Source: Betaproteobacteria bacterium SCN2 | Lineage (GTDB): Bacteria; Pseudomonadota; Gammaproteobacteria; Burkholderiales; Thiobacillaceae | Direction of reading: 5' to 3' | Assembly: GCA_008923285.1 (NCBI GenBank) | Contig: WBSG01000009.1 | Coordinates: forward strand, 44,114 to 68,113 | DNA: 24,000 bases | Part shown: positions 1 through 22,407 of the stretch, in pieces | Layout of the letters: every line of letters begins with the position of its first letter | Position numbering within the stretch: the stretch's first letter is position 1 | Notes under the pieces: model-generated | Database searches by the model: none | Seen by the model: the letters and a program-made list of their open reading frames with translations, nothing else | Told to the model about the DNA's origin: nothing | Translations under genes and position numbers: made by a program

Positions 1-9
1 GAGTACGAT

Positions 10-396
10 TCATGTCCAGTATTTGGCCTTGTCTGGCAAAACCCAGCGCACCCCTCCCCGCGGGTCTTCCTTATCGCCCCTGTAGCGCGGGATTAGATGA
101 ATGTGCAGATGCGGCACTGTTTGACCGCCAGCGGGTCCATGGTTGATGCCGATGTTGTAGCCATCTGGCTGATGCTGTTTGTCCAGAATAGTCTTTGCTT
201 TTGTCAGCGCCTTGAGTAATGCCGCCTGCTCATCCTCGGTTGCCTCGAACAAAGTTGCAACGTGACGGCGCGGGAGGATTACGGTATGCCCCATTGATAC
301 CGGGAAGCCATCTCGATATACCACCGTGAGCTCATCCTCAGCGAGAATGCGATTGGGCTCAAGATGGCAAAAAGGGCAAGGTTTAGCCGGGGTCAT
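10..396 (-). CDS. HIT-family nucleotide hydrolase/transferase
   Basis: 128-aa ORF with an N-terminal CPFC and the histidine-triad signature HLHIHLIP (HxHxHxx) near the C-terminus. It is the last gene of a same-strand string, 19 nt after the upstream stop. Confidence 0.85.
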   Translation of the reverse strand: MTPAKPCPFCHLEPNRILAEDELTVVYRDGFPVSMGHTVILPRRHVATLFEATEDEQAALLKALTKAKTILDKQHQPDGYNIGINHGPAGGQTVPHLHIHLIPRYRGDKEDPRGGVRWVLPDKAKYWT

Positions 397-415
397 CTAA
401 GCAAGGATAGGCTGA

Positions 416-808
416 TTAATTACCTGCGTACCACGCCAACAAGCGATCTAGACTTGCCTCGTCCCTTACTTCAATCCGCAAGACGTCATTGCTTGCCGGG
501 TCCAGAGACGGATTCTTGCGCGCCACCGATCCCGCAATGCCGGGGTTGCCATTTACTCCCTGATGCCCGTGCACATACTTTTCGAGAACCTGGATTCCGT
601 CCAAGCCTTCAGAAGGGCAAGGCAAGCCAGCAGAGGAACAATGGTTTACGTAAGCTGTTACCCCATTCTTGCGCGCAAGCGAAATGGCCACTTCTCGAGG
701 TTGCGGGCCCTTAACAGTAAAACAGGCTGACTTGGTTGCCTGGTGATGGCATTGATAACCTCGATTCGCAAGTCTATCTGCGGCAAAATCGGCATTCCAA
801 GCGGTCAT
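416..808 (-). CDS. hypothetical protein, 130 aa, no domain recognised
   Basis: The ATG at 806-808 is preceded on the minus strand by GAGGGG about 6 nt upstream. The ORF fills the gap between the ASCH and HIT genes. The competing + strand ORF 364..714 is an Arg/Pro-rich shadow. Confidence 0.5.
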   Translation of the reverse strand: MTAWNADFAADRLANRGYQCHHQATKSACFTVKGPQPREVAISLARKNGVTAYVNHCSSAGLPCPSEGLDGIQVLEKYVHGHQGVNGNPGIAGSVARKNPSLDPASNDVLRIEVRDEASLDRLLAWYAGN

Positions 809-3109: not shown

Positions 3110-4087
3110 TCAGCCGTAGTGACGGGCTGCCTGGGCGATCTGATCCTTGACCCGTCTGCGCAGGCTGGCCGGCCCAAGAACCTCCACATCCGGCCCGTAC
3201 TTGAGGATATCCATCAGCAGCTCGCGGTCGTCGGCATAGGGGATTTCCAGCGAGTAACTGCCATCCGTGCCCATGGTGCCCTTCTGCCTGGGATGCCACT
3301 GCTCGTGGGCAACCCAACGGGCCCGCTCGGGCGTGAACTTGAGCTTGGCCCATTGCACCTTGCTGCCGGAGAAGATGCCATACCCCGCCCCCAGTACTTC
3401 ATCCGTGGTCTTTTCGGACACATCCTTGGCCGGCTTTTCCAGAACCTCGGCCTTCTGGATAGCATCGACCGAGAAGTTGCGCAGCCCCTTGCGCAGGTGG
3501 CACCAGGCATCCAGGTACCAGTTTTCCCGGTAATAGACGAGGCGCTGCGGCGAGACTTCGCGCTCGGTCACTTCGTTGGTGCCGCGGGCATGGTAGGTGA
3601 TCATCAGGCGCTTGCGCCTCAGGAGAACGGAGCCGACGGTCTCGAAATGGGACAGATGCATGCGGCGCGCGGCCACGCCGATGATGCGCACCCGCTTCCT
3701 TACCTCTTCGGCCGTGTTGTCGGCCGTGCCCAGGAGGCCGTTCAGCCGGGCCATGAGCGGCTGGATGTGGGGCGAAAGCAGCCCGCCCTTGTCCAGATTC
3801 GCCATCAGGTGCTGCATGGTCAGCAGCGCATGGATTTCCGAGGCGTTGAACCAGAGGCCGGGCAGTTCGAACTGGCTGCCGGCCGGGGCGTCGCCCTTTT
3901 CGTAGCGGTAGCCCCCTAAATCGCGGTCCCAGATGATGGGGGCGTTGAGCCGGTCACGCAGGTACTGGAAGTCCCGCTTGAGCGTGGCCCGCGAGACCTC
4001 CAGCTCATCAAGGAAGTCGTCGAACGGCACGACCTTGCGGTCGCTGATCATCTGGTCGATCTTGTAGAAACGCTCGGTGCGGTCCAT
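3110..4087 (-). CDS. HTH-WYL-WCX transcriptional regulator (BrxR/CapW/PafC-like), regulator 1
   Basis: N-terminal wHTH (RFYKIDQMISDRKVVPFDDFLDELEVSRATLKRDFQYLRD), a literal WYL motif (YYRENWYLDAWC) and a C-terminal WCX-like tail (LLMDILKYGPDVEVLGPASLRRRV). The start is set at MDRTERF (ATG ending at 4087) with GGAG 6 nt upstream. The 110-aa upstream extension of the ORF overlaps the neighbouring gene. Confidence 0.85.
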   Translation of the reverse strand: MDRTERFYKIDQMISDRKVVPFDDFLDELEVSRATLKRDFQYLRDRLNAPIIWDRDLGGYRYEKGDAPAGSQFELPGLWFNASEIHALLTMQHLMANLDKGGLLSPHIQPLMARLNGLLGTADNTAEEVRKRVRIIGVAARRMHLSHFETVGSVLLRRKRLMITYHARGTNEVTEREVSPQRLVYYRENWYLDAWCHLRKGLRNFSVDAIQKAEVLEKPAKDVSEKTTDEVLGAGYGIFSGSKVQWAKLKFTPERARWVAHEQWHPRQKGTMGTDGSYSLEIPYADDRELLMDILKYGPDVEVLGPASLRRRVKDQIAQAARHYG

Positions 4088-4137
4088 GGTGCACTCCATC
4101 AGGGGATGGCGTGATTCTAGGACACTTTTCCCTATCT

Positions 4138-4154
4138 GGCTCAAGGCATGAGCC
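4138..4154. promoter_or_regulatory. operator-like palindrome A, copy 2: GGCTCA-aggca-TGAGCC
   Basis: Perfect 6+6 inverted repeat, 51 nt upstream of the WYL-1 start codon (4087). Position suggests an autoregulatory site. Confidence 0.65.
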
Positions 4155-4266
4155 ATAAGTGGCGCACGGATCATTCGAACGTGCATCGCGCGATCAGGAT
4201 CAGCATGGCAAAGACCACCAGGGCCAATGCCATTCCCCTGAAGAAATACCTGAACGGGCCCATGAC

Positions 4267-4833
4267 TCAGCACCACTCCCGCACCGTCAGGAAGTGAGCT
4301 CCAGGACAACCGTTCCGAACCAGCACGTACCCCGCTAGAAGTTCCTTCTGCCCCCATGTCGTCTCCCATCGCGCAGTAAAGGACCAAAGCTCGTCTCCAT
4401 CCGAACAGCCGTCCAGGAAATCGCGCCAAGCCGCATTCAGGTGGCCGAACGGCAAGTTCGGTACGGCACCCAGGGGGTCTTCCACCGTTTCGCGAGCCTC
4501 GGTCTCCTGCACGGTCAGTCGTTCCTGTAGATGGCCACGCTCCACGGCAAATTCCCGCTCTTCCTCCAGCGCAGGCTCATTCTTCTTCGTAAAGTGCTCT
4601 GTAATCTTCATGTAGGCGGCAACTGGCCAGAATATTACGACAGCGACAGCAGCAAGCGCCGGGGCAACAATGTTGTTCAGTATTCGAAATGAAAGCTTCT
4701 CGCGGTCTGGATTCACCGCATCGAGCAGGTCATGAAGCGATTCCGACTCGCTCTTTTTCGTCAGCCGTTGCGCACCATAAATGAGGACAAGCACCGAAAC
4801 CCCTATCCCGAGGTACCAATACAGGTAGATCAC
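4267..4833 (-). CDS. membrane protein, 188 aa (two predicted TM helices plus a C-terminal soluble domain)
   Basis: Hydrophobic stretches YLYWYLGIGVSVLVLIYG and IVAPALAAVAVVIFWPVAAY. GTG start with AGGAG 6 nt upstream. The GTGA start/stop overlap with the upstream gene suggests translational coupling. Confidence 0.65.
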   Translation of the reverse strand: MIYLYWYLGIGVSVLVLIYGAQRLTKKSESESLHDLLDAVNPDREKLSFRILNNIVAPALAAVAVVIFWPVAAYMKITEHFTKKNEPALEEEREFAVERGHLQERLTVQETEARETVEDPLGAVPNLPFGHLNAAWRDFLDGCSDGDELWSFTARWETTWGQKELLAGYVLVRNGCPGAHFLTVREWC

Positions 4834-5330
4834 GACTCACTCCTGTCGTCCATGTTAACGCGAGGGAACACTGTCATGGCGCCGACTTCGTAGCCTTCGG
4901 GGGCGTCATCGGAGTCGGCTGTCCCGTTGTGTCGCACTCGCGTCGCCACCACGACACCGCGCTCGATGTCCAAGAACAAGTCCCGCTCGTAGGTGCTTCC
5001 ATAGCCCATGTGGACGTACTCGAGCTGCTTACCCTGCGGAATGCGGATGGTGCCGGTGTACCAGTGCGCGAAAACCCTGTCTGGAAAGTCCGGAAAGATG
5101 GTAGCAACCGAGGCCTCGGATCCATCCTCCAAGGTGCCGTGCAGCCCGACCAGGTACAGTCGTTCGTTGACGATTTCCCATCTACCAACGTAGCCGCGCC
5201 ACAGAGCCGTGCAGTTTGACTCGAACCGTGGGGTATACCCACCCATGGCAAAGTAGTCGCTGAGGGGGTTTGTGCACATGGCCACTTCCTTCCCTTGGTA
5301 GAGCAGCCTTTCAGCAATCTGCGCTGTCAT
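4830..5330 (-). CDS. hypothetical protein, 166 aa
   Basis: Start set at MTAQIAERL (ATG ending at 5330) with GGGAGAG about 5 nt upstream. The longer 221-aa form would overlap the 5'-nucleotidase gene. No domain recognised. Confidence 0.6.
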   Translation of the reverse strand: MTAQIAERLLYQGKEVAMCTNPLSDYFAMGGYTPRFESNCTALWRGYVGRWEIVNERLYLVGLHGTLEDGSEASVATIFPDFPDRVFAHWYTGTIRIPQGKQLEYVHMGYGSTYERDLFLDIERGVVVATRVRHNGTADSDDAPEGYEVGAMTVFPRVNMDDRSES

Positions 5331-5382: not shown

Positions 5383-6315
5383 TTAAGCTGCCTTGGCGGT
5401 AAGCTGGACAACCTGGCCATTGGCCACGCCATAGGGCACATGGCCGGTGGCCACATGCTGGCGCGCCGATTCGCAGTGGCCCTGCTGGTCGTCAAAGAAG
5501 ATGTCCGCGCCGAAGGCCTTGAGGAACTCGCCCTTGTTCATGCCGCCCAGAAACAGCGCCTCGTCGATGCGGATGTTCCATCCCCGGAGCGTGCGAATCA
5601 CACGCTCGTGCGCCGGGGCGCTCCTCGCTGTGATGAGTGCGGTGCGGATGGGCGAAGCCTCGCTCGGATACTCGGACTGTATCTGGTGCAGGATGGAGAG
5701 GAAGCTTTTGAACGGCCCTCCGGAGAGCGGTAAGCGAGCGGCATCCCGTTCGTTTTGCTCGAAAGCCCCCAGCCCTTCGCGCTTGTAGATCTGCTCGGAC
5801 TCGTCGGAGAACACCACGGCATCGCCGTCGAAGGCGATGCGCAGTTGCCCGGAGGCGGTGTTCTGGTTCACATGGGACGGCAGGATGGTCGCCGCAGCAC
5901 AACCGGCTTCCAGCGCCTTGCGCACGTCGTCCTGGCTGGCGGATAGGAAAAGGTGCGCGCCAAAAGGCGCGATATAACGCCAGGTGCTCTCCCCGCGGGT
6001 GAAGGCCGCCCGGGTGATGTCCAGCCCGTGGTGACGAATGGAGTTGAACACCCGAAGGCCCGTGTCCGCGCTGTTGCGCGAGAGCAGGATCACCTCGACC
6101 CGCGCCTTGCCGGTCTCGGCATCGTTCAGGGCCAGAAGCTTCTTGACCAGGGGGAAGGCGATGCCGGGTTCCAGCACGTCCTCCTCGTGCTCGATCTGGT
6201 AGCGGCAATAGGCATCCACACCATCCTCCTCGAATACCCGGTGGCTTTCGTCCAGATCGAACAGGGCGCGGGAAGAAATGGCGACGACCAGCTTGTTGTT
6301 GGTGTTATCGGGCAT
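5383..6315 (-). CDS. HAD-superfamily 5'-nucleotidase (cytosolic cN-I-like family)
   Basis: HAD motif I FDGDAVVF (DxDxV), motif II ITARS and motif III/IV K...FGADIFFDDQ. The overall layout, starting KLVVAISSRALFDL, recalls the cN-IA-type 5'-nucleotidase family. Start at MPDNTNNK with AAGGAG 6 nt upstream. Confidence 0.7.
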   Translation of the reverse strand: MPDNTNNKLVVAISSRALFDLDESHRVFEEDGVDAYCRYQIEHEEDVLEPGIAFPLVKKLLALNDAETGKARVEVILLSRNSADTGLRVFNSIRHHGLDITRAAFTRGESTWRYIAPFGAHLFLSASQDDVRKALEAGCAAATILPSHVNQNTASGQLRIAFDGDAVVFSDESEQIYKREGLGAFEQNERDAARLPLSGGPFKSFLSILHQIQSEYPSEASPIRTALITARSAPAHERVIRTLRGWNIRIDEALFLGGMNKGEFLKAFGADIFFDDQQGHCESARQHVATGHVPYGVANGQVVQLTAKAA

Positions 6316-6363
6316 GGCGGGCTCCTTTGGCTTTGTCATACCTGCCATGCTACGGGGAATGGT

Positions 6364-7011: not shown

Positions 7012-8871
7012 TTAGTCAATCCTGTTTGGTAACCTGAAGGCATTTCCCACAAAGCGTTCCAGCGAACCCAATGCAAGTGTACCCGCCGTCATGTCTGATT
7101 CTCCGCCCAGCGGCGTGGCATTTGTCTTGAGACATTCCTCATAGATTGCCTGCCGTCGAGGTTCGCAATTATCGCTGTTGATCAAATCACGCAGTAAATT
7201 GGTCGCCTCGATGCAGTCCATTGAAGGATCTTCATTTCGGGGGCCACTATGCTCCATGAATATATAGGAGAAGGTCTTGTTCATGACCAAGGACGGCATT
7301 TCGTAATAGTAGCGGTCGATCATGACCTGGCGTCTGCTCCCGTCTTGGGCATCGGCCTCGGCGTCTGGGTCCAGTGGAAGAATGAGCAGATCGAAGATGG
7401 CATCATCATCGGTATCCGGTTTCATGGCCAATGTGGAAACATGATTCCCATCCAGGTCGCGGATGGAAAAAATGCGCAGGCCGTACAACAGGCATTTTTG
7501 CGCATAGCTCCCCACACAATGCCCCATGGCATTCCCCTCTTGCCATAAAGAAACTTCATCATTCAGTTCGACGATCATCCGCTTTCCCAACCGGATTGAC
7601 GAATCCAGCAATGGCGTCCAGGAGATTCCCTTTCCTGAAGGGTCGCCAGCAATCCCTTTTGTATTACGCATCTTTTCATGCCAATGATCGCTGATTTTGG
7701 TGAGCGTTTTGGGGCCAGTCTTGAACGCCCATCGCCTGACAGTGCGACGCGCCTTGATCGAACTGATACGGCGGTGATGAGCCACGCCATCGGCAAGCGC
7801 ATCCAGAAAGTCGCTGACGCCTGATACGGCAGGAAACCGCAAATCCTCTTGTTCCTTCTCAAGCACGCTCATGGGAAGCTTTTGATATCCGGTGAGCCTT
7901 TTTAGCGCTGTAGCAGGCATTTCCCACAATCCGCCAATGACGCGCTCATTGATTCTTCCCAGTCCAAGACTGATGCGCCAATAGTGAGCAGCCAGCAAGG
8001 CAACATCACCTTCTTGGGCCAGATATTTCCACCCCGGCTGCATCGACAGCGCCTTGAGCATCGGCTGAAACTCGTCCCGAACTGCCTTGAATAGCGCAGT
8101 CAGATGGAGTCCCTTGGTTCGCCTCAAGGCAGCGGCCGGCACATCGAAATGCCCCGACAGGAAATGAATCAGTTTCAGACCCTGGTCGATGCAGGCGAGC
8201 ACCTTCGACCGCTCTCCGCAGAAGGACATCTTGTCGTCATCTCGACGGCAGTTGGCCCATTCCTCAGGCAGTTCGTGGCAAAGGTATCTTGCCAGCCAGG
8301 GAAAAATGGCAAATGCCTGCCGCCTGTAATGCGAACATCTGGAGTCATCGCAATCAATCAGGTTGTAGGCGGCCACATTCGGGAACATTCCCCTGTCGTG
8401 AGTACGGAGTTTTTTCAGGATGCCGAAAGCCTCTGCATCAAGCAGGCCGATAAACCTCGTGAGGTCTTGTTTGGCCTGCGTAATTTCTGCGGAAGACCTA
8501 CCAAGCCACCCGTCATTGCTCTCGTCGTAATTTCCATCCCAGTATCGCCTGATGATTTCCCCTTCAAGCGCACTCGGGTCAAGCGCCGCACAGACCATTG
8601 GCTCCCAAGCCACGGCATCGTGCGCCTCGTTCAAGATCGAATCCACACCCTTGCCCAGGTGATCAAGCATGGACTGGCATGCTTCTTCGGGCGTACCAGC
8701 CCAATCCTTGCGAACATAGGCGACTGCGCCGCTGGGCATCGCCACCCACATCAAGCAGTCGTGCTGCCCATGATTCTCTGATGAGGGAGCGATCAACTGG
8801 TATAGCCCCGCCACTCCGGGCAATGGGTTAAGGACTGTTTTCGACTCCAAGCGGTGCTTGACGGTATTCAT
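7012..8871 (-). CDS. PcfJ-like domain protein
   Basis: The C-terminal segment LWQEGNAMGHCVGSYAQKCLLYGLRIFSIRDLDGNHVSTL matches my memory of the PcfJ-like signature (EG..M.HCV.sY...ifs.r). Start set at MNTVKH with GGAGG 5 nt upstream, 17 nt after the AAA+ gene stop. The N-terminal roughly 450 aa are unassigned. Confidence 0.65.
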   Translation of the reverse strand: MNTVKHRLESKTVLNPLPGVAGLYQLIAPSSENHGQHDCLMWVAMPSGAVAYVRKDWAGTPEEACQSMLDHLGKGVDSILNEAHDAVAWEPMVCAALDPSALEGEIIRRYWDGNYDESNDGWLGRSSAEITQAKQDLTRFIGLLDAEAFGILKKLRTHDRGMFPNVAAYNLIDCDDSRCSHYRRQAFAIFPWLARYLCHELPEEWANCRRDDDKMSFCGERSKVLACIDQGLKLIHFLSGHFDVPAAALRRTKGLHLTALFKAVRDEFQPMLKALSMQPGWKYLAQEGDVALLAAHYWRISLGLGRINERVIGGLWEMPATALKRLTGYQKLPMSVLEKEQEDLRFPAVSGVSDFLDALADGVAHHRRISSIKARRTVRRWAFKTGPKTLTKISDHWHEKMRNTKGIAGDPSGKGISWTPLLDSSIRLGKRMIVELNDEVSLWQEGNAMGHCVGSYAQKCLLYGLRIFSIRDLDGNHVSTLAMKPDTDDDAIFDLLILPLDPDAEADAQDGSRRQVMIDRYYYEMPSLVMNKTFSYIFMEHSGPRNEDPSMDCIEATNLLRDLINSDNCEPRRQAIYEECLKTNATPLGGESDMTAGTLALGSLERFVGNAFRLPNRID

Positions 8872-8888
8872 GCCTGCCTCCATCCCGA

Positions 8889-10991
8889 TCAGGCCGCAAA
8901 GCCGATCTTGCGGCCATGGCCTTCCTGATTGAGTTCGCTTTCCTGGCGCAGCGCCTCGAGCGCGTCCTCACAGTTCCTGATCCTTCTGAGGCGGGACTGT
9001 CTCGCGACGGTCGCGTAGTTGCCGGGGGTGATCCCGCTTACTCTGGCAAGCCTGGCTTTCAGTTCGGTCGCTGGCGCAGGAAGGGACAGGATGTTGCACA
9101 GGTTCTCAAACAGGCGCCATGCCTGCTCTGGCAGCAGGAATCCAAAGCAGACCTTGAGGTCAAAGCGACGCACCGAGGCCTTGTCCAGGTTGTCCATCAG
9201 GTTGGTCGAGGCAATGAAGATGCCCTTGAAGTTTTCCATGCAGGTCAGCATCTCGTTTACCTGGGTGACCTCCCAGCTGTTGCGGGCCTGCTGACGGTCC
9301 ATCAGAAAGCTGTCCGCCTCGTCGATCAGTAGAACGGACTTGTCCATTTCGGCCCGATCGAAAGCATCGGCAATGTTCTTCTCGGTTTCGCCTACCCACA
9401 TCGAGATCAGGTCCGAGGCGCGCTTGACCAGCAGGGGCTGCCCCAGGAGGTGCGCGAGGTAGTGGCCATAGGCGGTCTTGCCCGTGCCGGGCGGCCCGTA
9501 CAGGCAGAGCCGCCCTTCCCGGCTTTCGAGCAGGCCCTCGCCGAGCGACGCCAGGTCGCAATCCGCGTTGAGGTAGCTCGGGTCGTAGTCGAGCCCGCCT
9601 GCGGCTTTGAGTCCTAAGCCCCTTTTCTTGCCCTGGGCCTTCAGGCTGGTCTCCATGATTCTGGTCAGTACTGCCTGGCGGTCGGAATCAGGAATCTGCT
9701 CGCGGACACTGGAATAGACGGCCGCGCTGCGCTCGATCAGGGCCGGCGTCAGGTGCTCGCAGGCGGCAGCCTGATGAGCCCAGTCTGTGCCGACTTCCGG
9801 TACATGCTGCCTGATGAGCTGTTCGCGCACCGCATAGGGTGGCGTCTTGAGTTCCAGCACATAGTCGAACCGGCGAAGGTAGGCCGGATCGAACAGGTCG
9901 ATGCTGTTGGAAAGCCAGACTGTGGGAACCGGGTTGGTTTCCAGCAGCTCGTTCATGAACGCCTTGTTCTCGGCAGGTTTGTCCTTGCGTACCAGCCATT
10001 CACTCGGCTTGGGGAACACGTCCTCAATCTCGTCGAAGACGATCAGGCATTGCCCGGCCGTGTCGAGCAGGCTCTGGCTGAACATGAAGTACCTGAAGCG
10101 ACCATGGGAGACCAGGGGGTCTCCATAGATGTCCTTGGTCGGCACTTCATAGGCCGCAGAGGAAAGCTCTCTGGACAGGGTGCGAACCAGTTCGGTCTTT
10201 CCGCAGCCTGGAGTGCCATACAGCAGGATATTCACGCCCCTGGCACGGTTGCTCAGCGCATCCTTCAGGCGTGCCAGAACGATCTGCAGGTCATCCCCCA
10301 GGTAGGAAAACGCGGATAGGTCATGTTTCCCCGACTTGCTGCCGACCAGATAGCCTTCCAGGATATCGATCGTGTCGGCATGTTCCTCCTGCATTTGCGA
10401 GGAAAGTCCGGGCAGCAGTTCGACCTTTCTGCTGAAATCCTCAATCTCGGCAGAGAGCTTCAGTATGCCGGTTTTGGCCAGCCGGCCTTCGGATGAAAAA
10501 GCCTTTTGCGCTTCTGCTTCGGGGAGTCCCAACGCTCTGGCAACGATCTGCACACACGCGAGCCGAGGCAATCTTTCAGCTGCATCGAAGATCGCGGTCA
10601 GTGCCGGCTCCTGGCGGACGAGGACTGCAAACAGCAATATATCCTGCTCGCTCTGGCTTAAATCCAAATGACTGGCCAGCCTGGCGATGTTTCTGGACAG
10701 GACAGTGCTTTCCGGCTTTTTGGGTTGTTCGGACTGCTGGGCCCTGAGCAATTCCCCGAAGCCGGCGATCTTTTCCGCTTCCTCCAGCTTCCAGAACTCC
10801 GATGGGGTAATCGCATTGCCGTCACCTCCTAGAGAGAACCTGCTTTCAGTAGCGAGACAAGGAATGTCTAGCTGCAGCGCCTCGTTTTGCCACACGAAGC
10901 CGTGTCGGACAGCCTGGGTTGCATAAGGGCTGACCAGAAAGCGCAGCGCCCACAACCGCATGAGCGGCAGGTATTCGGAGTTGATGGCCAT
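8889..10991 (-). CDS. tandem AAA+ ATPase (two classic-clade AAA domains)
   Basis: D1 has Walker A GTPGCGKT and Walker B CLIVFDEIED. D2 has Walker A GPPGTGKT, Walker B VLLIDEADS, sensor-1-like FIASTN and RRFD. The roughly 230-aa N-terminal region is unassigned. Confidence 0.9.
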   Translation of the reverse strand: MAINSEYLPLMRLWALRFLVSPYATQAVRHGFVWQNEALQLDIPCLATESRFSLGGDGNAITPSEFWKLEEAEKIAGFGELLRAQQSEQPKKPESTVLSRNIARLASHLDLSQSEQDILLFAVLVRQEPALTAIFDAAERLPRLACVQIVARALGLPEAEAQKAFSSEGRLAKTGILKLSAEIEDFSRKVELLPGLSSQMQEEHADTIDILEGYLVGSKSGKHDLSAFSYLGDDLQIVLARLKDALSNRARGVNILLYGTPGCGKTELVRTLSRELSSAAYEVPTKDIYGDPLVSHGRFRYFMFSQSLLDTAGQCLIVFDEIEDVFPKPSEWLVRKDKPAENKAFMNELLETNPVPTVWLSNSIDLFDPAYLRRFDYVLELKTPPYAVREQLIRQHVPEVGTDWAHQAAACEHLTPALIERSAAVYSSVREQIPDSDRQAVLTRIMETSLKAQGKKRGLGLKAAGGLDYDPSYLNADCDLASLGEGLLESREGRLCLYGPPGTGKTAYGHYLAHLLGQPLLVKRASDLISMWVGETEKNIADAFDRAEMDKSVLLIDEADSFLMDRQQARNSWEVTQVNEMLTCMENFKGIFIASTNLMDNLDKASVRRFDLKVCFGFLLPEQAWRLFENLCNILSLPAPATELKARLARVSGITPGNYATVARQSRLRRIRNCEDALEALRQESELNQEGHGRKIGFAA

Positions 10992-11035: not shown

Positions 11036-11054
11036 TCCGACATGTGATGTCGCA
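11036..11054. promoter_or_regulatory. operator-like palindrome B, copy 1: TCCGACA-tgtga-TGTCGCA
   Basis: 13 of 14 arm positions are palindromic. It lies 45 nt upstream of the AAA+ ATPase start codon (10991). Confidence 0.55.
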
Positions 11055-15769: not shown

Positions 15770-16666
15770 CTAGTGCCGGATATATACTTCCACGCATTCC
15801 CGCATGGTGTTGTCATGAATCTCAAGGATCGGCCCTATGCCCCCTTCGGCATCCACCTGATATCCCCCTGCCAGATCCCAGGCAATGGGCACACCACATT
15901 CCTTGGCTGTCTTGAACACCAGGCCATCGCGCAGCCTGATTTGCTCCGTGGTCAGGAATCCGCCCAAGGGATCATTGATGTGCGGATCAGCGCCGGCCTG
16001 GTACAGGATGATTTGGCAATCCTGCATGGACCTTACGAGTGCTGGAATGCGGGATATGAACGCCTTGGCTTGCGCTGCCTCAGCGTATTCACTGCCCGCG
16101 GTGTAGTGCCTGATCCAAGAGGAAGCCTGGTGATGCTGAATCAGATCTTCCGTTCCATCGCCGTAATGCATGTCGAAATCAAGAATCCCGATGCGTGTCG
16201 CTAGACCTTCATGCTTCAAGGAAAGTGACGTCACCATCAGGCCGTTGAAGGTGCAATATCCGAACGGCTGATCGTATCCTGCGTGGTGAAATCCGGAACA
16301 GGGTGCAACGGCGATCTGGCCGTTGCGGACGGCCTCACGAGCAGCCGACAGCATCGCGCCGACAGTATAGGGAAGCGTGGCAGCCACTTCCTGCAGCGTG
16401 TTTCCGAATCCATTCTTGATCTCCCCGGCCAGAATCCCTTCTACATAGGCAGGACTGTGGGTACGCTTGAGATCCTCGATGGTTGCTGGCGAAGGTTCCA
16501 TGATGCGGATCGGTAACCTGCGATCCATCCAGGATGCGACAACTTGTGCAGGCTTCCCCGCGCTAGGGGAAAAGCTCTCGAAGTTTGCGACCATCCTTGG
16601 CGTATAGAATACCGGCAGCTTCTCTAGCCGCGCGTCGTCTTGGATTTGGTGGCCCATGTCGAACAT
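15770..16666 (-). CDS. histone-deacetylase-fold (arginase/deacetylase superfamily) amidohydrolase
   Basis: All classic HDAC motifs are present: SGFHHAGYD (His-His dyad), FGYCTFNG, DFDMHYGDGT (Zn ligands Asp/His), YQAGADPHINDPLGG (Zn Asp) and LAGGYQ (catalytic Tyr). The start is ambiguous: TTG ending at 16669, ATG at 16666 or ATG at 16657. Confidence 0.85.
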   Translation of the reverse strand: MFDMGHQIQDDARLEKLPVFYTPRMVANFESFSPSAGKPAQVVASWMDRRLPIRIMEPSPATIEDLKRTHSPAYVEGILAGEIKNGFGNTLQEVAATLPYTVGAMLSAAREAVRNGQIAVAPCSGFHHAGYDQPFGYCTFNGLMVTSLSLKHEGLATRIGILDFDMHYGDGTEDLIQHHQASSWIRHYTAGSEYAEAAQAKAFISRIPALVRSMQDCQIILYQAGADPHINDPLGGFLTTEQIRLRDGLVFKTAKECGVPIAWDLAGGYQVDAEGGIGPILEIHDNTMRECVEVYIRH

Positions 16667-16703
16667 CAATATGAATGGAGAAGGTCATATTGAAATCGAT
16701 GTA

Positions 16704-16722
16704 TGCGACAAAAAGTGTCGCA
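16704..16722. promoter_or_regulatory. operator-like palindrome B, copy 2: TGCGACA-aaaag-TGTCGCA
   Basis: Perfect 7+7 inverted repeat, 35-47 nt upstream of the candidate HDAC-fold gene starts (38 nt from the ATG at 16666). Confidence 0.65.
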
Positions 16723-17641: not shown

Positions 17642-17962
17642 TCACCACAAACGAAATAAAAGTTTCCCCGCGACAGCAAGAATCGACAAATTCCCGATCT
17701 CGTAGGTATTAGCCGAGTTCGCGCCAAGCTTGGGCTTGACTTTCCCGTTCTCAATTACCCAAGTGTTAGATGACGATGCTCCAATTTTTGGCTTCAGCTC
17801 TTTTCCGTCCCATAGCCAGGTATTTGAGGATGAGGCATTCATTTTCGGCTTGATTTCCCGTCCATCGAACAACCAGGTATTTGTTGAGGACGGGTTGTTC
17901 TTGGGTTTTAGTTCACGTCCATTACAAACCCAGTTGCCAGGCAGTTCTAGTTTGTTCGCCAT
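17642..17962 (-). CDS. small protein made of four 19-aa tandem repeats plus a hydrophobic tail
   Basis: The repeats are WVCNGRELKPKNNPSSTNT, WLFDGREIKPKMNASSSNT, WLWDGKELKPKIGASSSNT and WVIENGKVKPKLGANSANT, followed by YEIGNLSILAVAGKLLFRLW. The ATG ending at 17962 has AAAGGA 5 nt upstream. Confidence 0.7.
   Translation of the reverse strand: MANKLELPGNWVCNGRELKPKNNPSSTNTWLFDGREIKPKMNASSSNTWLWDGKELKPKIGASSSNTWVIENGKVKPKLGANSANTYEIGNLSILAVAGKLLFRLW
17705..17932 (-). repeat. 4 x 57-nt in-frame tandem repeat (19-aa units)
   Basis: The periodicity is visible at both protein and DNA level, for example CCAGGTATTTGAGGATGAGGC... and CCAGGTATTTGTTGAGGACGG... spaced 57 nt apart. Confidence 0.8.
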
Positions 17963-18079
17963 CACGATCCTTTGTTGCTTGGTGTTAGAAGGGTGTTTCT
18001 ATTCGATCACTATTACTATGAATTCAAAATTATGCTGCGCCAATTGGCCATTCGATGTATCTCGTCACTCAAAATGGGA

Positions 18080-19081
18080 CTAATTGTAAAGTGCAATCAT
18101 TCCTGAGATTTCTTCTTGAATGGCCTTACGCAAACTGACTGGCTTGACGACTTCCACATAGTGCCCGAGCCCCAGAATCCACCACTTCAATTGGAGTGTA
18201 TCCGCGACTGTGGCAATGACCCTGAGTCGGCCATCCTTGCTCTCCGAAATGACCTGATCGTCTGACAGCGGTGTTTCGTACAAATGCCTGCCGCTGTCAG
18301 GATCGAACAGCAGTTCGATCCTGATCTGGTCACCGTCCCCGAAGTCCATATGTCCTTCCGCCAGGTAGGTATCGATCGAGAAATCCTCCGGACGGGTGAA
18401 TGTCCTGTCCATGCGTGTCGCCTTCTTGATGCGACAGACCGTCAGGATGCGGGTGTCGTCGTAGCCTTCATAGCGGCAAACCAGGTACAGCATGGGTCCG
18501 CGCATGACGTATGCAAGCGGAGAGATGATGTGTTCTTTTGCCTCCGTGCGCCCGCGCCCCTGGTAGCTGACTTGCAGCCACTGGTTATTAAGAAGTGCGA
18601 GGCTGACGGCTTCGTGAACCTTGGGATCAATCGGGCAGGGTTTGAGCGGCTGGGCCGGGGTGCGGGCGCGCACCTTGTCGGGCCAGTCTTTGAGTGCCTT
18701 GGCGTTGTGCGAGGACTTCAACCGCTCACGCGCAGCCTTGAGTAGTGGCGACAAGCTGTCCAGCACGGTGGGGGGCAGCATGTCCTTGATGTGGCGCTCC
18801 AGCATGTAGAGGGACAGCGCCTGCTCGTCATTCATGGCCGGCAGGTTCCAGATGGCAGCATCCCTGGGCCAGCTCCAGCCGTAGGTGCGGTCCCGATCGT
18901 CCACCTGCAGCCCGAACAGTTCCACAAAACTCCACAGATCGCGCTCCACGCTGCGTTTGTTGATGCCGTAGCCGCGATCCATCAGCTTCTCGGTCAGCTG
19001 GCTGGCGGTGATCTGGCTGGGGTAGCGCGGGATCAGCCTCAGCATTTCCCACTGGCGAAGCAGAGTGTTGTCCTTGCTCAT
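18080..19081 (-). CDS. HTH-WYL-WCX transcriptional regulator, regulator 2
   Basis: N-terminal wHTH (LLRQWEMLRLIPRYPSQITASQLTEKLMDRGYGINKRSVERDLWSF), a WYL-position variant (GPMLYLVCRYEGYDDTRILTVCRI) and a WCX-like tail (LKWWILGLGHYVEVVKPVSLRKAI). Start set at MSKDNT with GAGAGG 4 nt upstream. Confidence 0.85.
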   Translation of the reverse strand: MSKDNTLLRQWEMLRLIPRYPSQITASQLTEKLMDRGYGINKRSVERDLWSFVELFGLQVDDRDRTYGWSWPRDAAIWNLPAMNDEQALSLYMLERHIKDMLPPTVLDSLSPLLKAARERLKSSHNAKALKDWPDKVRARTPAQPLKPCPIDPKVHEAVSLALLNNQWLQVSYQGRGRTEAKEHIISPLAYVMRGPMLYLVCRYEGYDDTRILTVCRIKKATRMDRTFTRPEDFSIDTYLAEGHMDFGDGDQIRIELLFDPDSGRHLYETPLSDDQVISESKDGRLRVIATVADTLQLKWWILGLGHYVEVVKPVSLRKAIQEEISGMIALYN

Positions 19082-19130
19082 GGCGCCTCTCATTTGTCCG
19101 GATGGCTCAATCCTAGCAAGGATAGTGTTT

Positions 19131-19155
19131 CAGTGCGACACGTTATGTCGCACTG
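19131..19155. promoter_or_regulatory. operator-like palindrome B, copy 3: CAGTGCGACA-cgtta-TGTCGCACTG
   Basis: Perfect 10+10 inverted repeat, the longest copy. It is centred in the 119-nt divergent region between WYL-2 (start 19081) and the FtsZ-like gene (start 19201). Confidence 0.7.
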
Positions 19156-19200
19156 CTGCCTAAACTGGCCATACTTTGATATAGCGAGGCATGGGCAGGC

Positions 19201-19992
19201 ATGAAGGCATTTGTGGTGAGGTGTGAATACGAGGATGGCGACAGCTACGAGTGGCCGCGCTTTGTCGTGCTGGGCAAGCGCGCGGACGTTCTGGCCGACC
19301 GCATGATCGAATACGCGGGATCGATTTCCCCTGTCGATTGGAAGCTGCAACCGAATGCAATCGAAACCAGACAGTTCGACGTACAAAACTGGCTGGCCAT
19401 GCAGGAAAGCACGGGGTGGACGAACCAGCTCTTTGTGGCGATTGCAGGTACCTTGAGTGGGGAAGAATGCTCCCTACTCGATCGTGTGCTGGCATTGTCG
19501 GGGCAGCACTGCGTCATCGTGGCTGATGCGCACACGCCGCTTCAGGCTACCTGGCAGTCTGTCATTCGGCTACCGCCACATCGTTCATGGGATGCCCAAT
19601 GGGCCTGGGGCATTCGGGTCGTGCTGGACGTGCTGCTGGAAGCGGCGGTTCAGCGAGGATTGATTTGCTTCTGCCCCGATGATGTCCGGATCTGCCTCGA
19701 AGGGCGCTATAGCGAGTTGGCGGTCGCGCACGCCGAAGGCGAAGACAGGGCTGTAGTGGCCGTGGAGAAGGTTCTGCAAGCGTTATCCGGGCGGATGGAT
19801 CTGGCGCTTGCCGAGGCTTTCATCCTGAGTTTCCATGCCGGTTCGGACATCCGCATGCGGGAAATTCATCTTGGGTTGGAGCGACTCAAGGATGTTATCG
19901 TCAGGGAGGATGTCACTATCATGTCGGACATGGTCTGGACAGAAGACCGTCGTTTTGCCGTGAGCCTGATCGCCTCCGCACCTTTTGCCTGA
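19201..19992 (+). CDS. FtsZ/tubulin-fold protein with degenerate GTP-binding loops (predicted pseudo-GTPase)
   Basis: Collinear with E. coli FtsZ as I recall it. RFVVLGKRADVLADRMIE aligns with IKVIGVGGGGGNAVEHMVRE. LFVAIAGTLSGEECSLLDRV aligns with MVFIAAGMGGGTGTGAAPVVAEV. QRGLICFCPDDVRICL aligns with RPGLMNVDFADVRTVM. AHAEGEDRAVVAVEKVL aligns with GVASGEDRAEEAAEMAI. FHAGSDIRMREI aligns with ITAGFDLRLDEF. AVSLIASA aligns with VTVVATG. The G-rich T1 and T4 loops are replaced, and about 30 aa covering T2/T3 are missing. Confidence 0.65.
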   Translation: MKAFVVRCEYEDGDSYEWPRFVVLGKRADVLADRMIEYAGSISPVDWKLQPNAIETRQFDVQNWLAMQESTGWTNQLFVAIAGTLSGEECSLLDRVLALSGQHCVIVADAHTPLQATWQSVIRLPPHRSWDAQWAWGIRVVLDVLLEAAVQRGLICFCPDDVRICLEGRYSELAVAHAEGEDRAVVAVEKVLQALSGRMDLALAEAFILSFHAGSDIRMREIHLGLERLKDVIVREDVTIMSDMVWTEDRRFAVSLIASAPFA

Positions 19993-20009
19993 ACAGAAAG
20001 GACTTACAA

Positions 20010-21473
20010 GTGGCCGGACTTTCCAAATCCCGCATCCTGCTCAACCAGCAATGCCCGAAGCGTCTGTGGCTCAAGGTCAACCGGCCCGATCTGGAAGAGG
20101 CGTCGGATGGCATGAAGGCGCGCTTTGCCGCCGGCGACCAGATCGGCGACATCGCGCGCAGGCTTCATCCCGATGGCCTGCTGATCGATGCGGGCGATCT
20201 CAAGGGCGCGCTCGCCCAGACCAGGGCAGCCCTTGATGAAGCGCCGCGACCCTTGTTCGAGGCCACCTTCGAGCACCAGGGCCTGCTGGTCCAGGCCGAC
20301 CTGCTGCTGCCCGAAGGCGGCGCCTGGCGCATGGTGGAGGTGAAGTCCTCCACCACGGTCAAGGACTACCACCTGACCGATGCGTCGGTGCAGGCCTGGG
20401 TGCTGGAGCAGGCGGGCATGCCGCTAAGCCGGGTGGAAGTCGCCCATGTCGACAACACCTTCGTCTATCCGGGCAACGGCGATTACCACGGTCTGCTGGC
20501 GCATGCGGACATCTCGCGCGAGGCTCGGGCACTGCAGCCGGAGATTCCCGTCTGGATCGATCAGGCCAGACAAACGCTGGATCTTGCTTCCGAACCGGCC
20601 ATGCAACCCGGCCCCCAGTGCACCGATCCCTTCGAGTGCCCTTTCCGCCATCACTGCGACCCGGCCGCCATGGAGCCGATCCCAGCGCACTCGGTCCGGG
20701 TGCTGCCTCATGGCGGCAAGTTCGTGACCGGCCTGCTTGAGCAGGGCAAGGACGACCTGCGGCAACTGCGCATGGATGAGTTGAAAAAGGAAAACCATCA
20801 GCGCATCTGGCGCACCCTGCAAACCGGGCAGGCCGAACTGGACCCGCGTGCCAGCAAGGTCATCAGAGGACTGGGCTGGCCGCGCTATTACATGGACTTC
20901 GAGACCATTAACCCGGCCGTGCCGCTGTGGCCAGGCACGCGCCCCTACCAGCACGTACCGTTTCAGTGGTCGTGCCACATAGAGAGGCCCGATGGGTTGG
21001 AACATGCAGCGTTCCTAGCCGAGGCAGGGATAGATCCCCGCCGGCCCTTCATCGAATCGCTGCTGGCCACACTGGGGGATACGGGTCCGGTATTGGTCTG
21101 GAATGCGTCTTTTGAGCGTGGGCGGCTGGAAGACCTGGCGGACACTTTCCCTGACTTGGCGAAGCCGATCCAGAAAGTGATCAAGCGCCTGTTCGACCTG
21201 CTGCCGCTGTCACGTGACCATTATTACCACCCAGAGATGCGCGGCTCCTGGTCGATCAAGGCAGTATTGCCCACGATTGCCCCGGAGCTGAGCTACGAGG
21301 GGCTGGAAGTAGCACACGGTGGCGCGGCGCAAGAAGCATTTGTCGAGATGATTGCCCCGACCACCTCTCCCGAACGCAAGGCCGCACTCAGGCAGGCAAT
21401 GCTGGAGTACTGCGAGCGCGACACGCTGGCGATGGTGAAGATTGCCGAGCATTACAGCCAGGCGGACAACTAG
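20010..21473 (+). CDS. Cas4-like PD-(D/E)XK nuclease fused to a DUF2779 domain
   Basis: GTG start 17 nt after the upstream stop, with AAAGGA upstream. The N-terminal half has QQCPKRLW plus CTDPFECPFRHHC (1+3 Cys, a Cas4/AddB-type Fe-S arrangement) and MVEVKSS (ExK). The C-terminal half has the DUF2779 hallmark YYMDFETINPAVPLWPGTRPYQHVPFQWSCH (DxE, exonuclease-like). Confidence 0.85.
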   Translation: MAGLSKSRILLNQQCPKRLWLKVNRPDLEEASDGMKARFAAGDQIGDIARRLHPDGLLIDAGDLKGALAQTRAALDEAPRPLFEATFEHQGLLVQADLLLPEGGAWRMVEVKSSTTVKDYHLTDASVQAWVLEQAGMPLSRVEVAHVDNTFVYPGNGDYHGLLAHADISREARALQPEIPVWIDQARQTLDLASEPAMQPGPQCTDPFECPFRHHCDPAAMEPIPAHSVRVLPHGGKFVTGLLEQGKDDLRQLRMDELKKENHQRIWRTLQTGQAELDPRASKVIRGLGWPRYYMDFETINPAVPLWPGTRPYQHVPFQWSCHIERPDGLEHAAFLAEAGIDPRRPFIESLLATLGDTGPVLVWNASFERGRLEDLADTFPDLAKPIQKVIKRLFDLLPLSRDHYYHPEMRGSWSIKAVLPTIAPELSYEGLEVAHGGAAQEAFVEMIAPTTSPERKAALRQAMLEYCERDTLAMVKIAEHYSQADN

Positions 21474-21493
21474 CACCACGGAGCATGCATGAG

Positions 21494-21512
21494 CGCGACA
21501 TGGATTGTCGCA
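21494..21512. promoter_or_regulatory. operator-like palindrome B, copy 4: CGCGACA-tggat-TGTCGCA
   Basis: 13 of 14 arm positions are palindromic, and the flanks GAG/CTC extend the pairing. It lies 71 nt upstream of the membrane-protein start (21583) and 21 nt after the DUF2779 gene stop. Confidence 0.55.
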
Positions 21513-21582
21513 CTCTGGCTCTACCATGTACTCAAGCTCATGCCGAGCTCAAAGTTCAATAACATCCAATAAGGGAGGAAAA

Positions 21583-22323
21583 ATGCTTCAACAAATCGAA
21601 ACCATCTATCTGGCCATTCTCAGGGTCGTCGTCATAGTCATCGCCGGCCTGCTGCTGGTTTCCGTCGTGATCTACGGGCTGAACTCCTTCCAGGGACTGT
21701 CCGAGCCCAAGCCGGACACCACGCCGCCTGCGATCACCAGCGAGTCACTGACCCGTGAGCTCACGGAAACAACCACCGGGGCTGACAACACCCCCGAGTT
21801 ACGAGATGACGCGGAGGCTGAACAAAAGGCTGACCTGGCAAAGAACGGCATCCACTACTCGCGCGCAGCCGAGGCAATAGCCAGGTTTGTGGAAAAACAA
21901 TCGGGTGGCGAGGAATTGGTGATTAAGCAGAAGGTCGAAGAGGTGATCAAGGAGAACGCCGAGTCGCAACCGACGCCAGAACTGGCAACAGCCTATGCGA
22001 AAGGGTTCGCTGATGCCATCGAAGGCACCCTGGCCAATCCTTCCATTGCTAACCTGGCACAGCAAACAGGCGCCATAGAGGTCGTCAACAAGGCATTGAA
22101 CGCTTACAGCCAGTCATTCCACGATCAGCTGGCCGAAAAGGAGCGGAAATTCGTCGAGGAACAACAAGAACGTTTGGAGAAGCAGGCGGGGGCCATGATG
22201 AGCCTCTATATAGCAGCCGGCGCGTTCGGCATGTTTCTGCTGGTCGTGTTCCTGTCCATCTTCATCCGCATCGAGCGGCACCTCCGGCACCTGGATGGCA
22301 GGCCGCTTACGCAGAACAGCTGA
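21583..22323 (+). CDS. bitopic/hairpin membrane protein, 246 aa
   Basis: Start at MLQQIETIY with AAGGGAGG 5 nt upstream. N-terminal TM helix (LRVVVIVIAGLLLVSVVIYGL), an acidic helical middle and a C-terminal TM helix (LYIAAGAFGMFLLVVFLSIFI). Followed by a palindromic terminator. Confidence 0.7.
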   Translation: MLQQIETIYLAILRVVVIVIAGLLLVSVVIYGLNSFQGLSEPKPDTTPPAITSESLTRELTETTTGADNTPELRDDAEAEQKADLAKNGIHYSRAAEAIARFVEKQSGGEELVIKQKVEEVIKENAESQPTPELATAYAKGFADAIEGTLANPSIANLAQQTGAIEVVNKALNAYSQSFHDQLAEKERKFVEEQQERLEKQAGAMMSLYIAAGAFGMFLLVVFLSIFIRIERHLRHLDGRPLTQNS

Positions 22324-22381: not shown

Positions 22382-22407
22382 TCAGGGCCGGGATATCCCG
22401 GCCCTGA
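22382..22407. terminator. bidirectional intrinsic terminator
   Basis: Perfect 26-nt palindrome TCAGGGCCGGGAT/ATCCCGGCCCTGA giving a GC-rich stem. It is preceded by GTTGAAAA and followed by CCATTTATTTATC, so each strand has a T-rich tail. It sits between convergent genes ending at 22323 (+) and 22412 (-). Confidence 0.75.

Follow-up and report, generated by a model that had tools for sequence, protein, structure and literature searches.

A 24,000-nucleotide (nt) stretch of the genome of Betaproteobacteria bacterium SCN2 (assembly GCA_008923285.1, contig WBSG01000009.1, positions 44,114 to 68,113), the whole of which is referred to below as the window, carries a gene, here named FtsZl (for FtsZ-like), whose product belongs to the FtsZ lineage by its C-terminal half and its overall fold. 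The protein is FtsZ-derived and has an overall two-domain arrangement; it is not a member of the canonical tubulin GTPase family, because the signature motifs of that family were tested for and are absent. FtsZl stands immediately upstream of a gene for a predicted double nuclease of the DUF2779 family and is read divergently from a gene for a transcription factor of the WYL type (WYL-2), across a palindromic box of the kind bound by the regulators DriD and DdaA. Reasoning from sequence, and by analogy with known division inhibitors, we consider it possible, with somewhat less than even confidence, that FtsZl would be a mimic of FtsZ, induced by single-stranded DNA (ssDNA) and unable to bind GTP, which caps or poisons the FtsZ filaments of its host.

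FtsZ ancestry is clearest in the C-terminal half. A profile of 23 family members run against the sequences of the PDB found FtsZ only (E 2.8e-8, residues 145-258), and hhalign against an alignment of 15 FtsZ sequences paired residues 131-262 with a probability of 98.7 and an E-value of 2.5e-16. The Pfam family FtsZ_C is matched by 20 of the 23 members (best 1.3e-8), the window protein alone reaching 18.4 bits (E 0.003), which is under the 27-bit cut-off. By these comparisons the C-terminal half (residues ~130-263) is homologous, far above chance, to the H7 helix, T7 loop and C-terminal domain of FtsZ. Three blocks that a first, sequence-only reading of this DNA had singled out as the best matches each proved to correspond to an FtsZ element in the hhalign alignment: RGLICFCPDDVRICL to the T7-H8 segment, AEGEDRAVVAVE to the S7-H9 loop, and HAGSDIRMREI to the S8-H10 loop, which is retained in FtsZl as GxDxxMKE (GxDLxLxE in FtsZ).

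The structural model agrees. An AlphaFold2 (AF2) model built with the family alignment (predicted local distance difference test, pLDDT, 89.6; predicted template-modelling score, pTM, 0.89) shows from residue 130 onwards the element order H7-T7-H8-S7-H9-S8-H10-S9-S10, which we take to be that of FtsZ. When the whole model was compared with the PDB by Foldseek, a check that the sequence-only reading had proposed, the best 50 of 313 matches (E<=0.001) were all FtsZ chains (E 1.4e-11, 293-321 aligned columns, query-normalised template-modelling score 0.58-0.63); no entry named TubZ, PhuZ or tubulin occurs among the structure matches listed. Against the viral models of BFVD, the top-ranked match and one more carry the name FtsZ or cell-division protein.

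The N-terminal half gives a different picture. Residues 1-129 form, in the model, a compact alpha/beta domain in which a beta-hairpin is followed by beta-alpha units; the only invariant glycines of residues 1-128 are G25, G83 and G101, with no glycine-rich loop among them, and Pfam Tubulin is matched by none of the 23 members. Comparison of this half with FtsZ by hhalign was not significant (E 0.12), its profile, run against the PDB sequences with a limit of E<=10, retrieved nothing, and residues 1-132 modelled on their own by AF2 (pLDDT 88.5) reached a best Foldseek E-value of 0.1, the top 50 matches containing no FtsZ. The collinearity with FtsZ that had been claimed from the first strand to the C-terminal end thus stands for the C-terminal half, whereas the N-terminal half alone carries no FtsZ signal. 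As the template-modelling score of the whole model (~0.6) exceeds the share of the C-terminal half (51% of residues), part of the N-terminal domain probably superposes on the GTPase domain.

Alignments of FtsZl with FtsZ that were forced over this region (global, or hhalign at low threshold) pair strand 1 and G25 either with S1/T1 or with S4/T4. Given these two incompatible registers and the negative searches of the N-terminal half, the mapping put forward in the sequence-only reading (T1 replaced by KRADV, T4 by GTLSGEE, and T2/T3 deleted) is not demonstrated: the absence of the glycine-rich loops holds, but the mapping is one possible register of two. A register in which FtsZl starts at S4 is not endorsed either, given the same conflict. 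Since no phosphate-binding glycine loops remain, FtsZl should not bind GTP in the canonical way, as had been concluded earlier; on its sequence, such binding is very unlikely. The same reading had left room for an intact nucleotide pocket to be revealed by a better alignment, and none emerged.

What the family has kept is the loop with which an FtsZ subunit reaches its neighbour. The family T7 loop reads R-G-[LV]-I-C-x-D-P-x-D-I; the position of FtsZ N207 is a cysteine in 21 of 23 members, and the aspartates equivalent to D209 and D212 are present in 19 and 20 of the 23, respectively. In FtsZ, the T7 aspartates act only on the nucleotide of the neighbouring subunit. The most conserved stretch of FtsZl is the block WxSV[IV]RLPPHRSWDAQWAWGIR (residues 118-139, window 19552-19617), which includes three invariant or near-invariant tryptophans and has no counterpart in FtsZ. 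D131 aligns with the consensus H7 aspartate of FtsZ, which contacts the guanine base, and is an aspartate in 22 of 23 members.

The FtsZl open reading frame (ORF) is a real gene, as judged from its homologues and from the confident AF2 model. A search of 5.8 billion proteins returned a family of 24 protein clusters, 35-95% identical over their full length, and a profile run exhaustively against 1.84 billion representatives recovered only nine family representatives at E<=1e-30, one of them an artefact, the remaining matches being ordinary FtsZ over residues ~145-260. The artefact, P0025 (5,520 residues, E 5e-65 against the FtsZl profile), is not a relative, since its score is built up from 39 weak matches to a tandem repeat that is unrelated. 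No relatives were found in IMG/VR viral contigs, GenBank phages or PLSDB plasmids, and neither PADLOC nor NCBIfam has a family for the protein. The family is small (~24 clusters) and was found only in genomic islands of environmental Pseudomonadota. In the window, the ORF positions, the 17 nt between the FtsZl stop and the DUF2779 start, and the divergent WYL gene are as first described; the intergenic region between WYL-2 and FtsZl measures 107 nt (Table 1).

For a view of gene order, 21 related loci were collected and their ORFs clustered. In clade A (the window, L015/L016, L005/L006 and L001-L003; 53-95% identity) a WYL gene is divergent from FtsZl-DUF2779, with a gap of 17-18 nt. In clade B (L004, L013, L014; 56-59%) the genes lie on one strand in the order (AAA+)-DUF2779-WYL-HDAC-...-5'-nucleotidase-FtsZl, where HDAC is a histone deacetylase-like gene; FtsZl is here 3-7 genes away from DUF2779-WYL and is the last gene of the island, adjoining housekeeping genes (L012). 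Clade C (L008-L010, L017-L019; 33-40%), from metagenome-assembled genomes (MAGs) of Thiobacillus and other Pseudomonadota, pairs FtsZl with a gene for a ~690-residue protein that has a signal or transmembrane region, a PDZ domain and further transmembrane helices; a PPP-type metallophosphatase gene is divergent from this pair, and 4-7 kb further downstream comes a tandem AAA+ ATPase gene, after which L008 and L017 have DUF2779.

DUF2779 is present in all FtsZl contexts with adequate flanks except L009, which has FtsZl and the AAA+ ATPase and no DUF2779 within 10 kb. The tandem AAA+ ATPase (AAA2x in the window) is found in the window and in L001-L003, L004, L008, L009, L017, L018 and L019, and in each of the three clades it occurs together with FtsZl and DUF2779; it was considered as an invariant neighbour and rejected as such, being absent within the flanks examined of L005/L006 and L014, so that its linkage is strong and not universal. 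What is conserved across the three clades is the residence of FtsZl in an island with DUF2779 and/or the tandem AAA+ ATPase. That FtsZl and the nuclease form an obligate pair is not supported by this survey: adjacency to WYL and DUF2779 is kept in clade A but absent from clades B and C. Moreover, DUF2779 homologues (56-66% identity) with WYL and/or AAA+ genes nearby occur without FtsZl in L022 (a complete Acidithiobacillus genome), L023 and L024, and because the module is common without it, FtsZl is a rare accessory, and not a core partner, of the WYL/AAA+/DUF2779 module.

One clade-B protein, P0010 (L012 15-902 / L013 7201-8088), has a 30-residue C-terminal tail ending in DLPTEIPHFLQSPEVG. 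This ending is similar to the conserved C-terminal peptide of FtsZ, D-I-P-x-F-L-R, which binds FtsA and ZipA. The EIPHFL tail was found in P0010 only, with no hidden frameshifted copies in other FtsZl members, and since it is confined to this one member we give it no weight.

Two published WYL regulators bear on the regulatory setting of FtsZl. DriD of Caulobacter binds ATACGACCGTTTCTGTCGCA (CGAC-N7-GTCG), and ssDNA stimulates its activation of didA, recA, recJ, bapE and other genes, didA being the division inhibitor gene of this regulon and recJ and bapE its nuclease genes (PMC9186387); DriD sites overlap a missing -35 element, at a constant distance from the -10 (PMC13004042). DdaA of Acinetobacter, like DriD an activator that responds to ssDNA or damage, binds CGACAATATGTGTCG, with the consensus CGWCA-N5-TGWCG, and activates the division inhibitor gene aciT, repair genes, and restriction-modification and CRISPR-Cas systems (PMC13010146, PMC12392091). 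The defence-type WYL repressors BrxR and CapW are also ssDNA-responsive (PMC13622015).

A perfect palindrome of this type lies between WYL-2 and FtsZl, in keeping with the earlier proposal that FtsZl-DUF2779 and WYL-2 are read divergently across an operator. The window holds four exact CGAC-N7-GTCG sites where 0.38 are expected (none of 100 shuffles reached four), all within 90 nt of a start codon, and at least four of its transcription units appear to form one regulon. The core was found in 17 of 24 related loci, over which the boxes were counted. A CGACA-N5-TGTCG palindrome stands in front of the FtsZl transcription unit in all three clades: in the WYL/FtsZl intergenic region in L001, L005, L015 and L016, as in the window; 51-52 nt before the FtsZl ATG, with no WYL gene adjacent, in L004, L013 and L014 of clade B; and, in clade C, upstream of the PDZ gene to which FtsZl is coupled (L008, L017) or of FtsZl (L007, L018). 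It precedes the AAA+ gene also in L001, L004, L017, L018, L019 and L024, and in related loci it precedes DUF2779, HDAC and Sel1-repeat genes and a NADAR-like gene (read by eye). A simple sigma-70 scan found no complete promoter at FtsZl. In most promoters with a box, a -10-like hexamer (TAnnnT or GAyAAT) begins 10-11 nt beyond it, so that the box covers the -35 position; a -35 hexamer is absent.

WYL-2, the presumed reader of the box in the window, matches Pfam WYL (8.7e-9) and WCX (8.5e-18) and has, by eye, a recognition-helix-like segment with two arginines (KRSVERDL) in its N-terminal region. Against PDB sequences it gave only five matches, deposited as WYL-domain or DeoR-family regulators (best E 4.8e-6); we take all five to be DriD, as the numbering offset fits the residues published for DriD. 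No WYL gene occurs in the clade-C flanks examined (up to 10 kb on each side), so the regulator there is presumably encoded elsewhere. Since both activators and repressors that respond to ssDNA are known, induction upon ssDNA would be expected whichever sign WYL-2 has. By its sequence features, the system fits the DriD/DdaA kind in box, architecture and regulator type: it combines a regulator with helix-turn-helix (HTH), WYL and WCX domains, a matching box that lies over the -35 at a fixed distance from the -10 and stands in an autoregulatory position beside the regulator gene, and a regulon that mixes nucleases, defence-type genes and, by hypothesis, an inhibitor of division, in the way that the published regulons include didA and aciT. 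It differs in its content, an island-borne set (AAA+ ATPase, DUF2779, HDAC-like and membrane proteins) in place of recA, uvrA and ssb, and in that DidA and AciT, unlike FtsZl, are small proteins unrelated to FtsZ. Because the box before the FtsZl transcription unit in all clades is the DriD/DdaA motif, the likeliest role of FtsZl shifts from allosteric partner of the nuclease to induced effector of an ssDNA or damage regulon.

The neighbouring 487-residue protein, whose gene is co-transcribed with FtsZl in this locus, is, as had been read from its sequence, a Cas4-type nuclease fused to DUF2779 (Pfam DUF2779 1.2e-44; PADLOC Cas4 1.4e-5 over the Cas4-like N-terminal part). In an alignment of 17 homologues (44-79% identity), the PD-(D/E)XK triad D97/E110/K112 is invariant, as are C204, C210 and C216, with C15 conserved in at least 90%; the DEDDy site (D296/E298, E369 and Y467/D471) does not vary either, and with its catalytic residues unchanged the protein is predicted to have both nuclease sites active. 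DUF2779 (PF11074; family F.17 in PMC3985635 and MMSYN1_0389 in PMC13621843) is predicted, in the passages of these two papers devoted to it, to join a Cas4-like PD-(D/E)XK domain to an RNase-H-fold 3'-5' exonuclease; COG2251 shows the same pairing and is often fused to tandem AAA domains, according to the corresponding passage of PMC3985635. The mycoplasma protein MMSYN1_0389 lacks two of the four cysteines, as described there (PMC13621843), whereas the window protein is full-length with all four. In the DUF2779 passages of both papers, linkage is mentioned neither to WYL nor to a tandem AAA+ ATPase, nor to a gene resembling FtsZ. The family is large (>6,400 clusters at E<=1e-20).

We propose the following course of events. 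The box would be read by an HTH-WYL-WCX regulator of the DriD/DdaA type, WYL-2 in the window and probably a regulator encoded elsewhere in clade C, and the gene set would be induced on ssDNA, whether this arises from DNA damage, from incoming DNA during uptake or from phage replication. The T7/C-domain ('bottom') face of FtsZl would then dock onto the nucleotide-bearing face of host FtsZ, the obvious partner by inference, and as FtsZl would offer no functional nucleotide pocket in return, it would cap or poison protofilaments. Division would be paused while the nuclease and the ATPase act on DNA, which would make FtsZl an FtsZ-derived functional analogue of SulA, DidA and AciT. With T7, H8 and the S8-H10 loop kept and its own pocket lost, the protein could dock on a nucleotide face of the tubulin family and yet not be extended. 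We favour this reading because the T7 aspartates are kept without a pocket of FtsZl's own, and because the characterised DriD/DdaA and SOS regulons include a division inhibitor. The fuller statement, that FtsZ-derived pseudo-GTPases which lost the pocket and kept the T7 'synergy' loop are borne on mobile islands as ssDNA-inducible cappers of host FtsZ, or as poisons resembling GTPase-activating proteins, within a DriD/DdaA-type WYL regulon that includes an AAA+/double-nuclease module, is rather doubtful as a whole and is offered tentatively.

Several observations weigh against the capping of host FtsZ. The window protein itself, whose T7 loop is RGLICFCPDD, is one of two members with a cysteine (C158) in place of the first T7 aspartate. 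The conserved block at residues 118-139 lies at the S6/H7 junction, the site of the nucleotide base pocket and top face in FtsZ, and its conservation points to a new, conserved binding site and not to a face that is dead. The N-terminal domain is only putatively derived from a GTPase domain. The best PDB matches of WYL-2 are remote relatives (E ~5e-6), and of six mapped ssDNA-contact residues of DriD (residue list from PMC9186387) WYL-2 keeps two (Y168 and Y192; R176 is replaced by K, R178 by H, W206 by L and R207 by T). In clade C, FtsZl overlaps by 4 nt the end of the PDZ-protein gene (L008-L010, L017, L019) and is translationally coupled to it. Finally, linkage to AAA2x/DUF2779 through three rearranged clades suggests a function tied to this module and not a general checkpoint.

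That linkage is the strength of an alternative in which host FtsZ is left untouched and FtsZl, binding the ATPase and/or the nuclease through its remodelled N-terminal domain, serves the WYL-controlled AAA+/DUF2779 module as a non-catalytic scaffold, substrate mimic or activity gate. All islands in which FtsZl was seen have DUF2779, the tandem AAA+ ATPase or both, a pattern that holds across three clades in spite of their rearrangements; the short spacing to DUF2779 is kept throughout clade A; the most conserved block is specific to the family and lies in the former pocket region; and the fusion of COG2251 to tandem AAA domains described in a passage of PMC3985635 makes an ATPase-nuclease unit a recurring machine. 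An adaptor of this kind is nevertheless unlikely, as FtsZl does not adjoin DUF2779 in clade B or C and L009 has no DUF2779 nearby, as WYL-AAA2x-DUF2779 modules are common without FtsZl, and as the retained FtsZ-specific T7 aspartates and C-domain motifs would be left unexplained.

A role as decoy or guard of an anti-phage island, in which FtsZl would bind phage inhibitors of FtsZ (of the Kil or gp0.4 type) or phage tubulins and either titrate them or signal their presence to the nuclease and ATPase effectors, is an improbable reading drawn purely from analogy. The islands do look defence-like, with neighbours such as the 5'-nucleotidase that matches the PADLOC candidate PDC-S08, GmrSD, HEPN, Fic, Macro, ADP-ribosylglycohydrolase and, by eye, NADAR-like genes; DdaA-type regulators also control defence systems (PMC12392091), and a passage of PMC7159879 proposes that cell-division enzymes in inactive form, and FtsZ/tubulin domains of rare occurrence, act as decoy effectors in bacterial conflict systems. 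However, PADLOC has no model for FtsZl or the module as a system, no relative turned up in the viral contigs, phage records and plasmid records searched, and the sequences, with their well-conserved blocks, do not have the look of rapid diversification. Least probable of the readings, and hardly to be expected, is that a remodelled pocket of FtsZl still accommodates a nucleotide or a ligand derived from one, the protein working as a sensor of small molecules or as a self-assembling polymer: no phosphate-binding loop of any kind remains, and the N-terminal domain has no sequence or fold similarity to any nucleotide-binding protein in the PDB profile search and Foldseek, against which stand the near-invariant D131 at the position of the FtsZ-consensus H7 Asp, the conserved block rich in W, R and H around the former pocket, and the ADP-ribose/NAD enzymes of the islands (Macro, ADP-ribosylglycohydrolase, 5'-nucleotidase and, by eye, a NADAR-like gene).

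Set beside FtsZ, FtsZl is homologous in H7, the T7-H8 segment and the whole C-terminal domain, and its overall fold is best matched by FtsZ crystal structures. It differs in lacking the T1 (GGGGxN) and T4 (GGGTGTG) loops, in an N-terminal domain ~60 residues shorter, in the absence of the C-terminal linker and FtsA/ZipA-binding peptide, and in its location in a mobile island and not the dcw cluster. SulA and MciZ bind FtsZ directly, occupying one longitudinal interface and blocking subunit addition under damage or developmental control. FtsZl would resemble them, and engineered FtsZ capping mutants, in the proposed mechanism only, and has no sequence relation to SulA or MciZ. We know of no natural capper derived from FtsZ itself. 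To our knowledge, all bacterial DNA-damage regulons that have been well studied include a division inhibitor (SulA, YneA, SidA/DidA, AciT), and none of these is related to its target. The NTP-dependent conflict systems of Kaur, Burroughs, Iyer and Aravind (2020, PMC7159879) share with the FtsZl locus a protein of the tubulin/FtsZ superfamily in a conflict-type neighbourhood and the idea of a dead look-alike as decoy; the systems described in the relevant passages have MoxR-vWA or GAP1-N2 GTPases and HSP70, none of which is in the FtsZl locus, and terms for the WYL/DUF2779/tandem-AAA+ context retrieved nothing from that paper.

In the searchable literature, no description was found of the FtsZl family, of a division inhibitor that derives from FtsZ, or of the module of WYL, tandem AAA+ ATPase and DUF2779, nor any link of FtsZ-like proteins with defence islands or of DUF2779 with WYL; the sequence-only reading had likewise known of no system pairing a tubulin-superfamily pseudo-GTPase with a nuclease, and none was found. 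If the capping reading is true, a natural, inducible FtsZ look-alike that keeps only the pocket-inserting face would block cytokinesis in a new manner, would be the first division inhibitor made out of FtsZ, and would also be a tool for probing the polarity of FtsZ filaments. The DriD/DdaA box is not confined to the chromosomal repair genes of Caulobacter and Moraxellaceae, and organises island-borne gene sets too, in environmental Pseudomonadota MAGs such as those of Thiobacillus and Anderseniella. The WYL/tandem AAA+/DUF2779 module is widespread and uncharacterised, and gives DUF2779 a regulatory context, predicted to be induction by ssDNA.

Table 1. Coordinates of genes and sites in the window, and of domains and related-locus genes where so indicated
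Feature	Position	Strand	Remarks
FtsZl (FtsZ-like gene)	19201-19992	+	263 aa; ORF, homologues, AF2 model and FtsZ matches
WYL-2 gene	18080-19093	-	337 aa; HTH-WYL-WCX transcription factor
DUF2779 double nuclease gene	20010-21473	+	487 aa; GTG start
DUF2779 protein, N-terminal domain	residues ~1-220		Cas4-like 4-Cys PD-(D/E)XK
DUF2779 protein, C-terminal domain	residues ~293-487		RNase-H-fold DEDDy 3'-5' exonuclease
DriD/DdaA-type box	19131..19155		CAGTGCGACAcgttaTGTCGCACTG; perfect 10+5+10 palindrome, core CGAC-N7-GTCG 19136-19150; between WYL-2 and FtsZl
Candidate -10 hexamer	19161..19166	+	TAAACT; starts 10 nt after the FtsZl box
Second box copy	21491..21515		GAGCGCGACATGGATTGTCGCACTC; core 21496-21510; between DUF2779 stop and membrane-protein gene
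Box copy	16706-16720		37 nt upstream of HDAC-like gene; same in L016
Box copy	11038-11052		47 nt upstream of tandem AAA+ ATPase gene
Membrane protein gene	21584..22323	+	two transmembrane segments; likely ATG 21584, behind AGGGAGG ribosome-binding site; downstream of second box
Terminator-like hairpin with T-run	22382..22407	+	end of rightward transcription unit(s)
AAA2x, tandem AAA+ ATPase	8889..10991	-	700 aa; Pfam AAA 1e-42; both Walker A and both Walker B intact
623-aa protein gene	7012-8883	-	5 nt downstream of AAA2x; weak PcfJ-like match
HDAC-like gene	15770-16669	-	Pfam histone-deacetylase family 1.5e-29; own box
5'-nucleotidase gene	5383-6348	-	PF06189 1.5e-139; PADLOC phage-defence candidate PDC-S08 1.8e-143
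WYL-1 gene	3110-4429	-	439 aa; HTH_11-WYL-WCX; closest solved relatives PafBC/PafC
Repeat ORF	17642-17965	-	107 aa; four tandem ~18-residue repeats (...SSSNTW[LV]xDGxExKPK...)
Clade-C PDZ/membrane protein gene	L008 7878-9944; L009 7857-9944; L010 7830-9917; L017 7929-9992		coordinates of the related loci

Among the other genes of the window, the second domain of AAA2x is IetA/CDC48-like, with all matches under the family cut-offs. PADLOC-DB 2.0 has no system model for FtsZl or the gene set, and in it DUF2779 finds weak Cas4 domain matches only and AAA2x an IetA-like domain only. The L005 homologue of the 623-residue PcfJ-like protein also carries a box. In other loci, adjacency of the ATPase and DUF2779 genes is the commoner arrangement, and the clade-C locus L017 has two DUF2779 genes (835-2304 and 19413-20753), each behind a box or a box-controlled ATPase gene. 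WYL-1 has no full DriD-type box alongside, only a half-site at 4930-4937. The 107-residue repeat ORF, which lies between WYL-2 and a gene for a 233-residue protein, has no meaningful family match. The second box of the window occurs at the same position in L016, where the membrane protein gene also has a homologue, and homologues of the HDAC-like gene follow WYL in L004 and L014 of clade B. Genes with Macro, ADP-ribosylglycohydrolase and Nmad3 domains (by Pfam) and NADAR-like genes (read by eye) recur in related islands, a recurrence that hints at ADP-ribose/NAD chemistry; the 5'-nucleotidase co-occurs with FtsZl in L004, L005, L013 and L014, and in L005 it adjoins an ADP-ribosylglycohydrolase gene.

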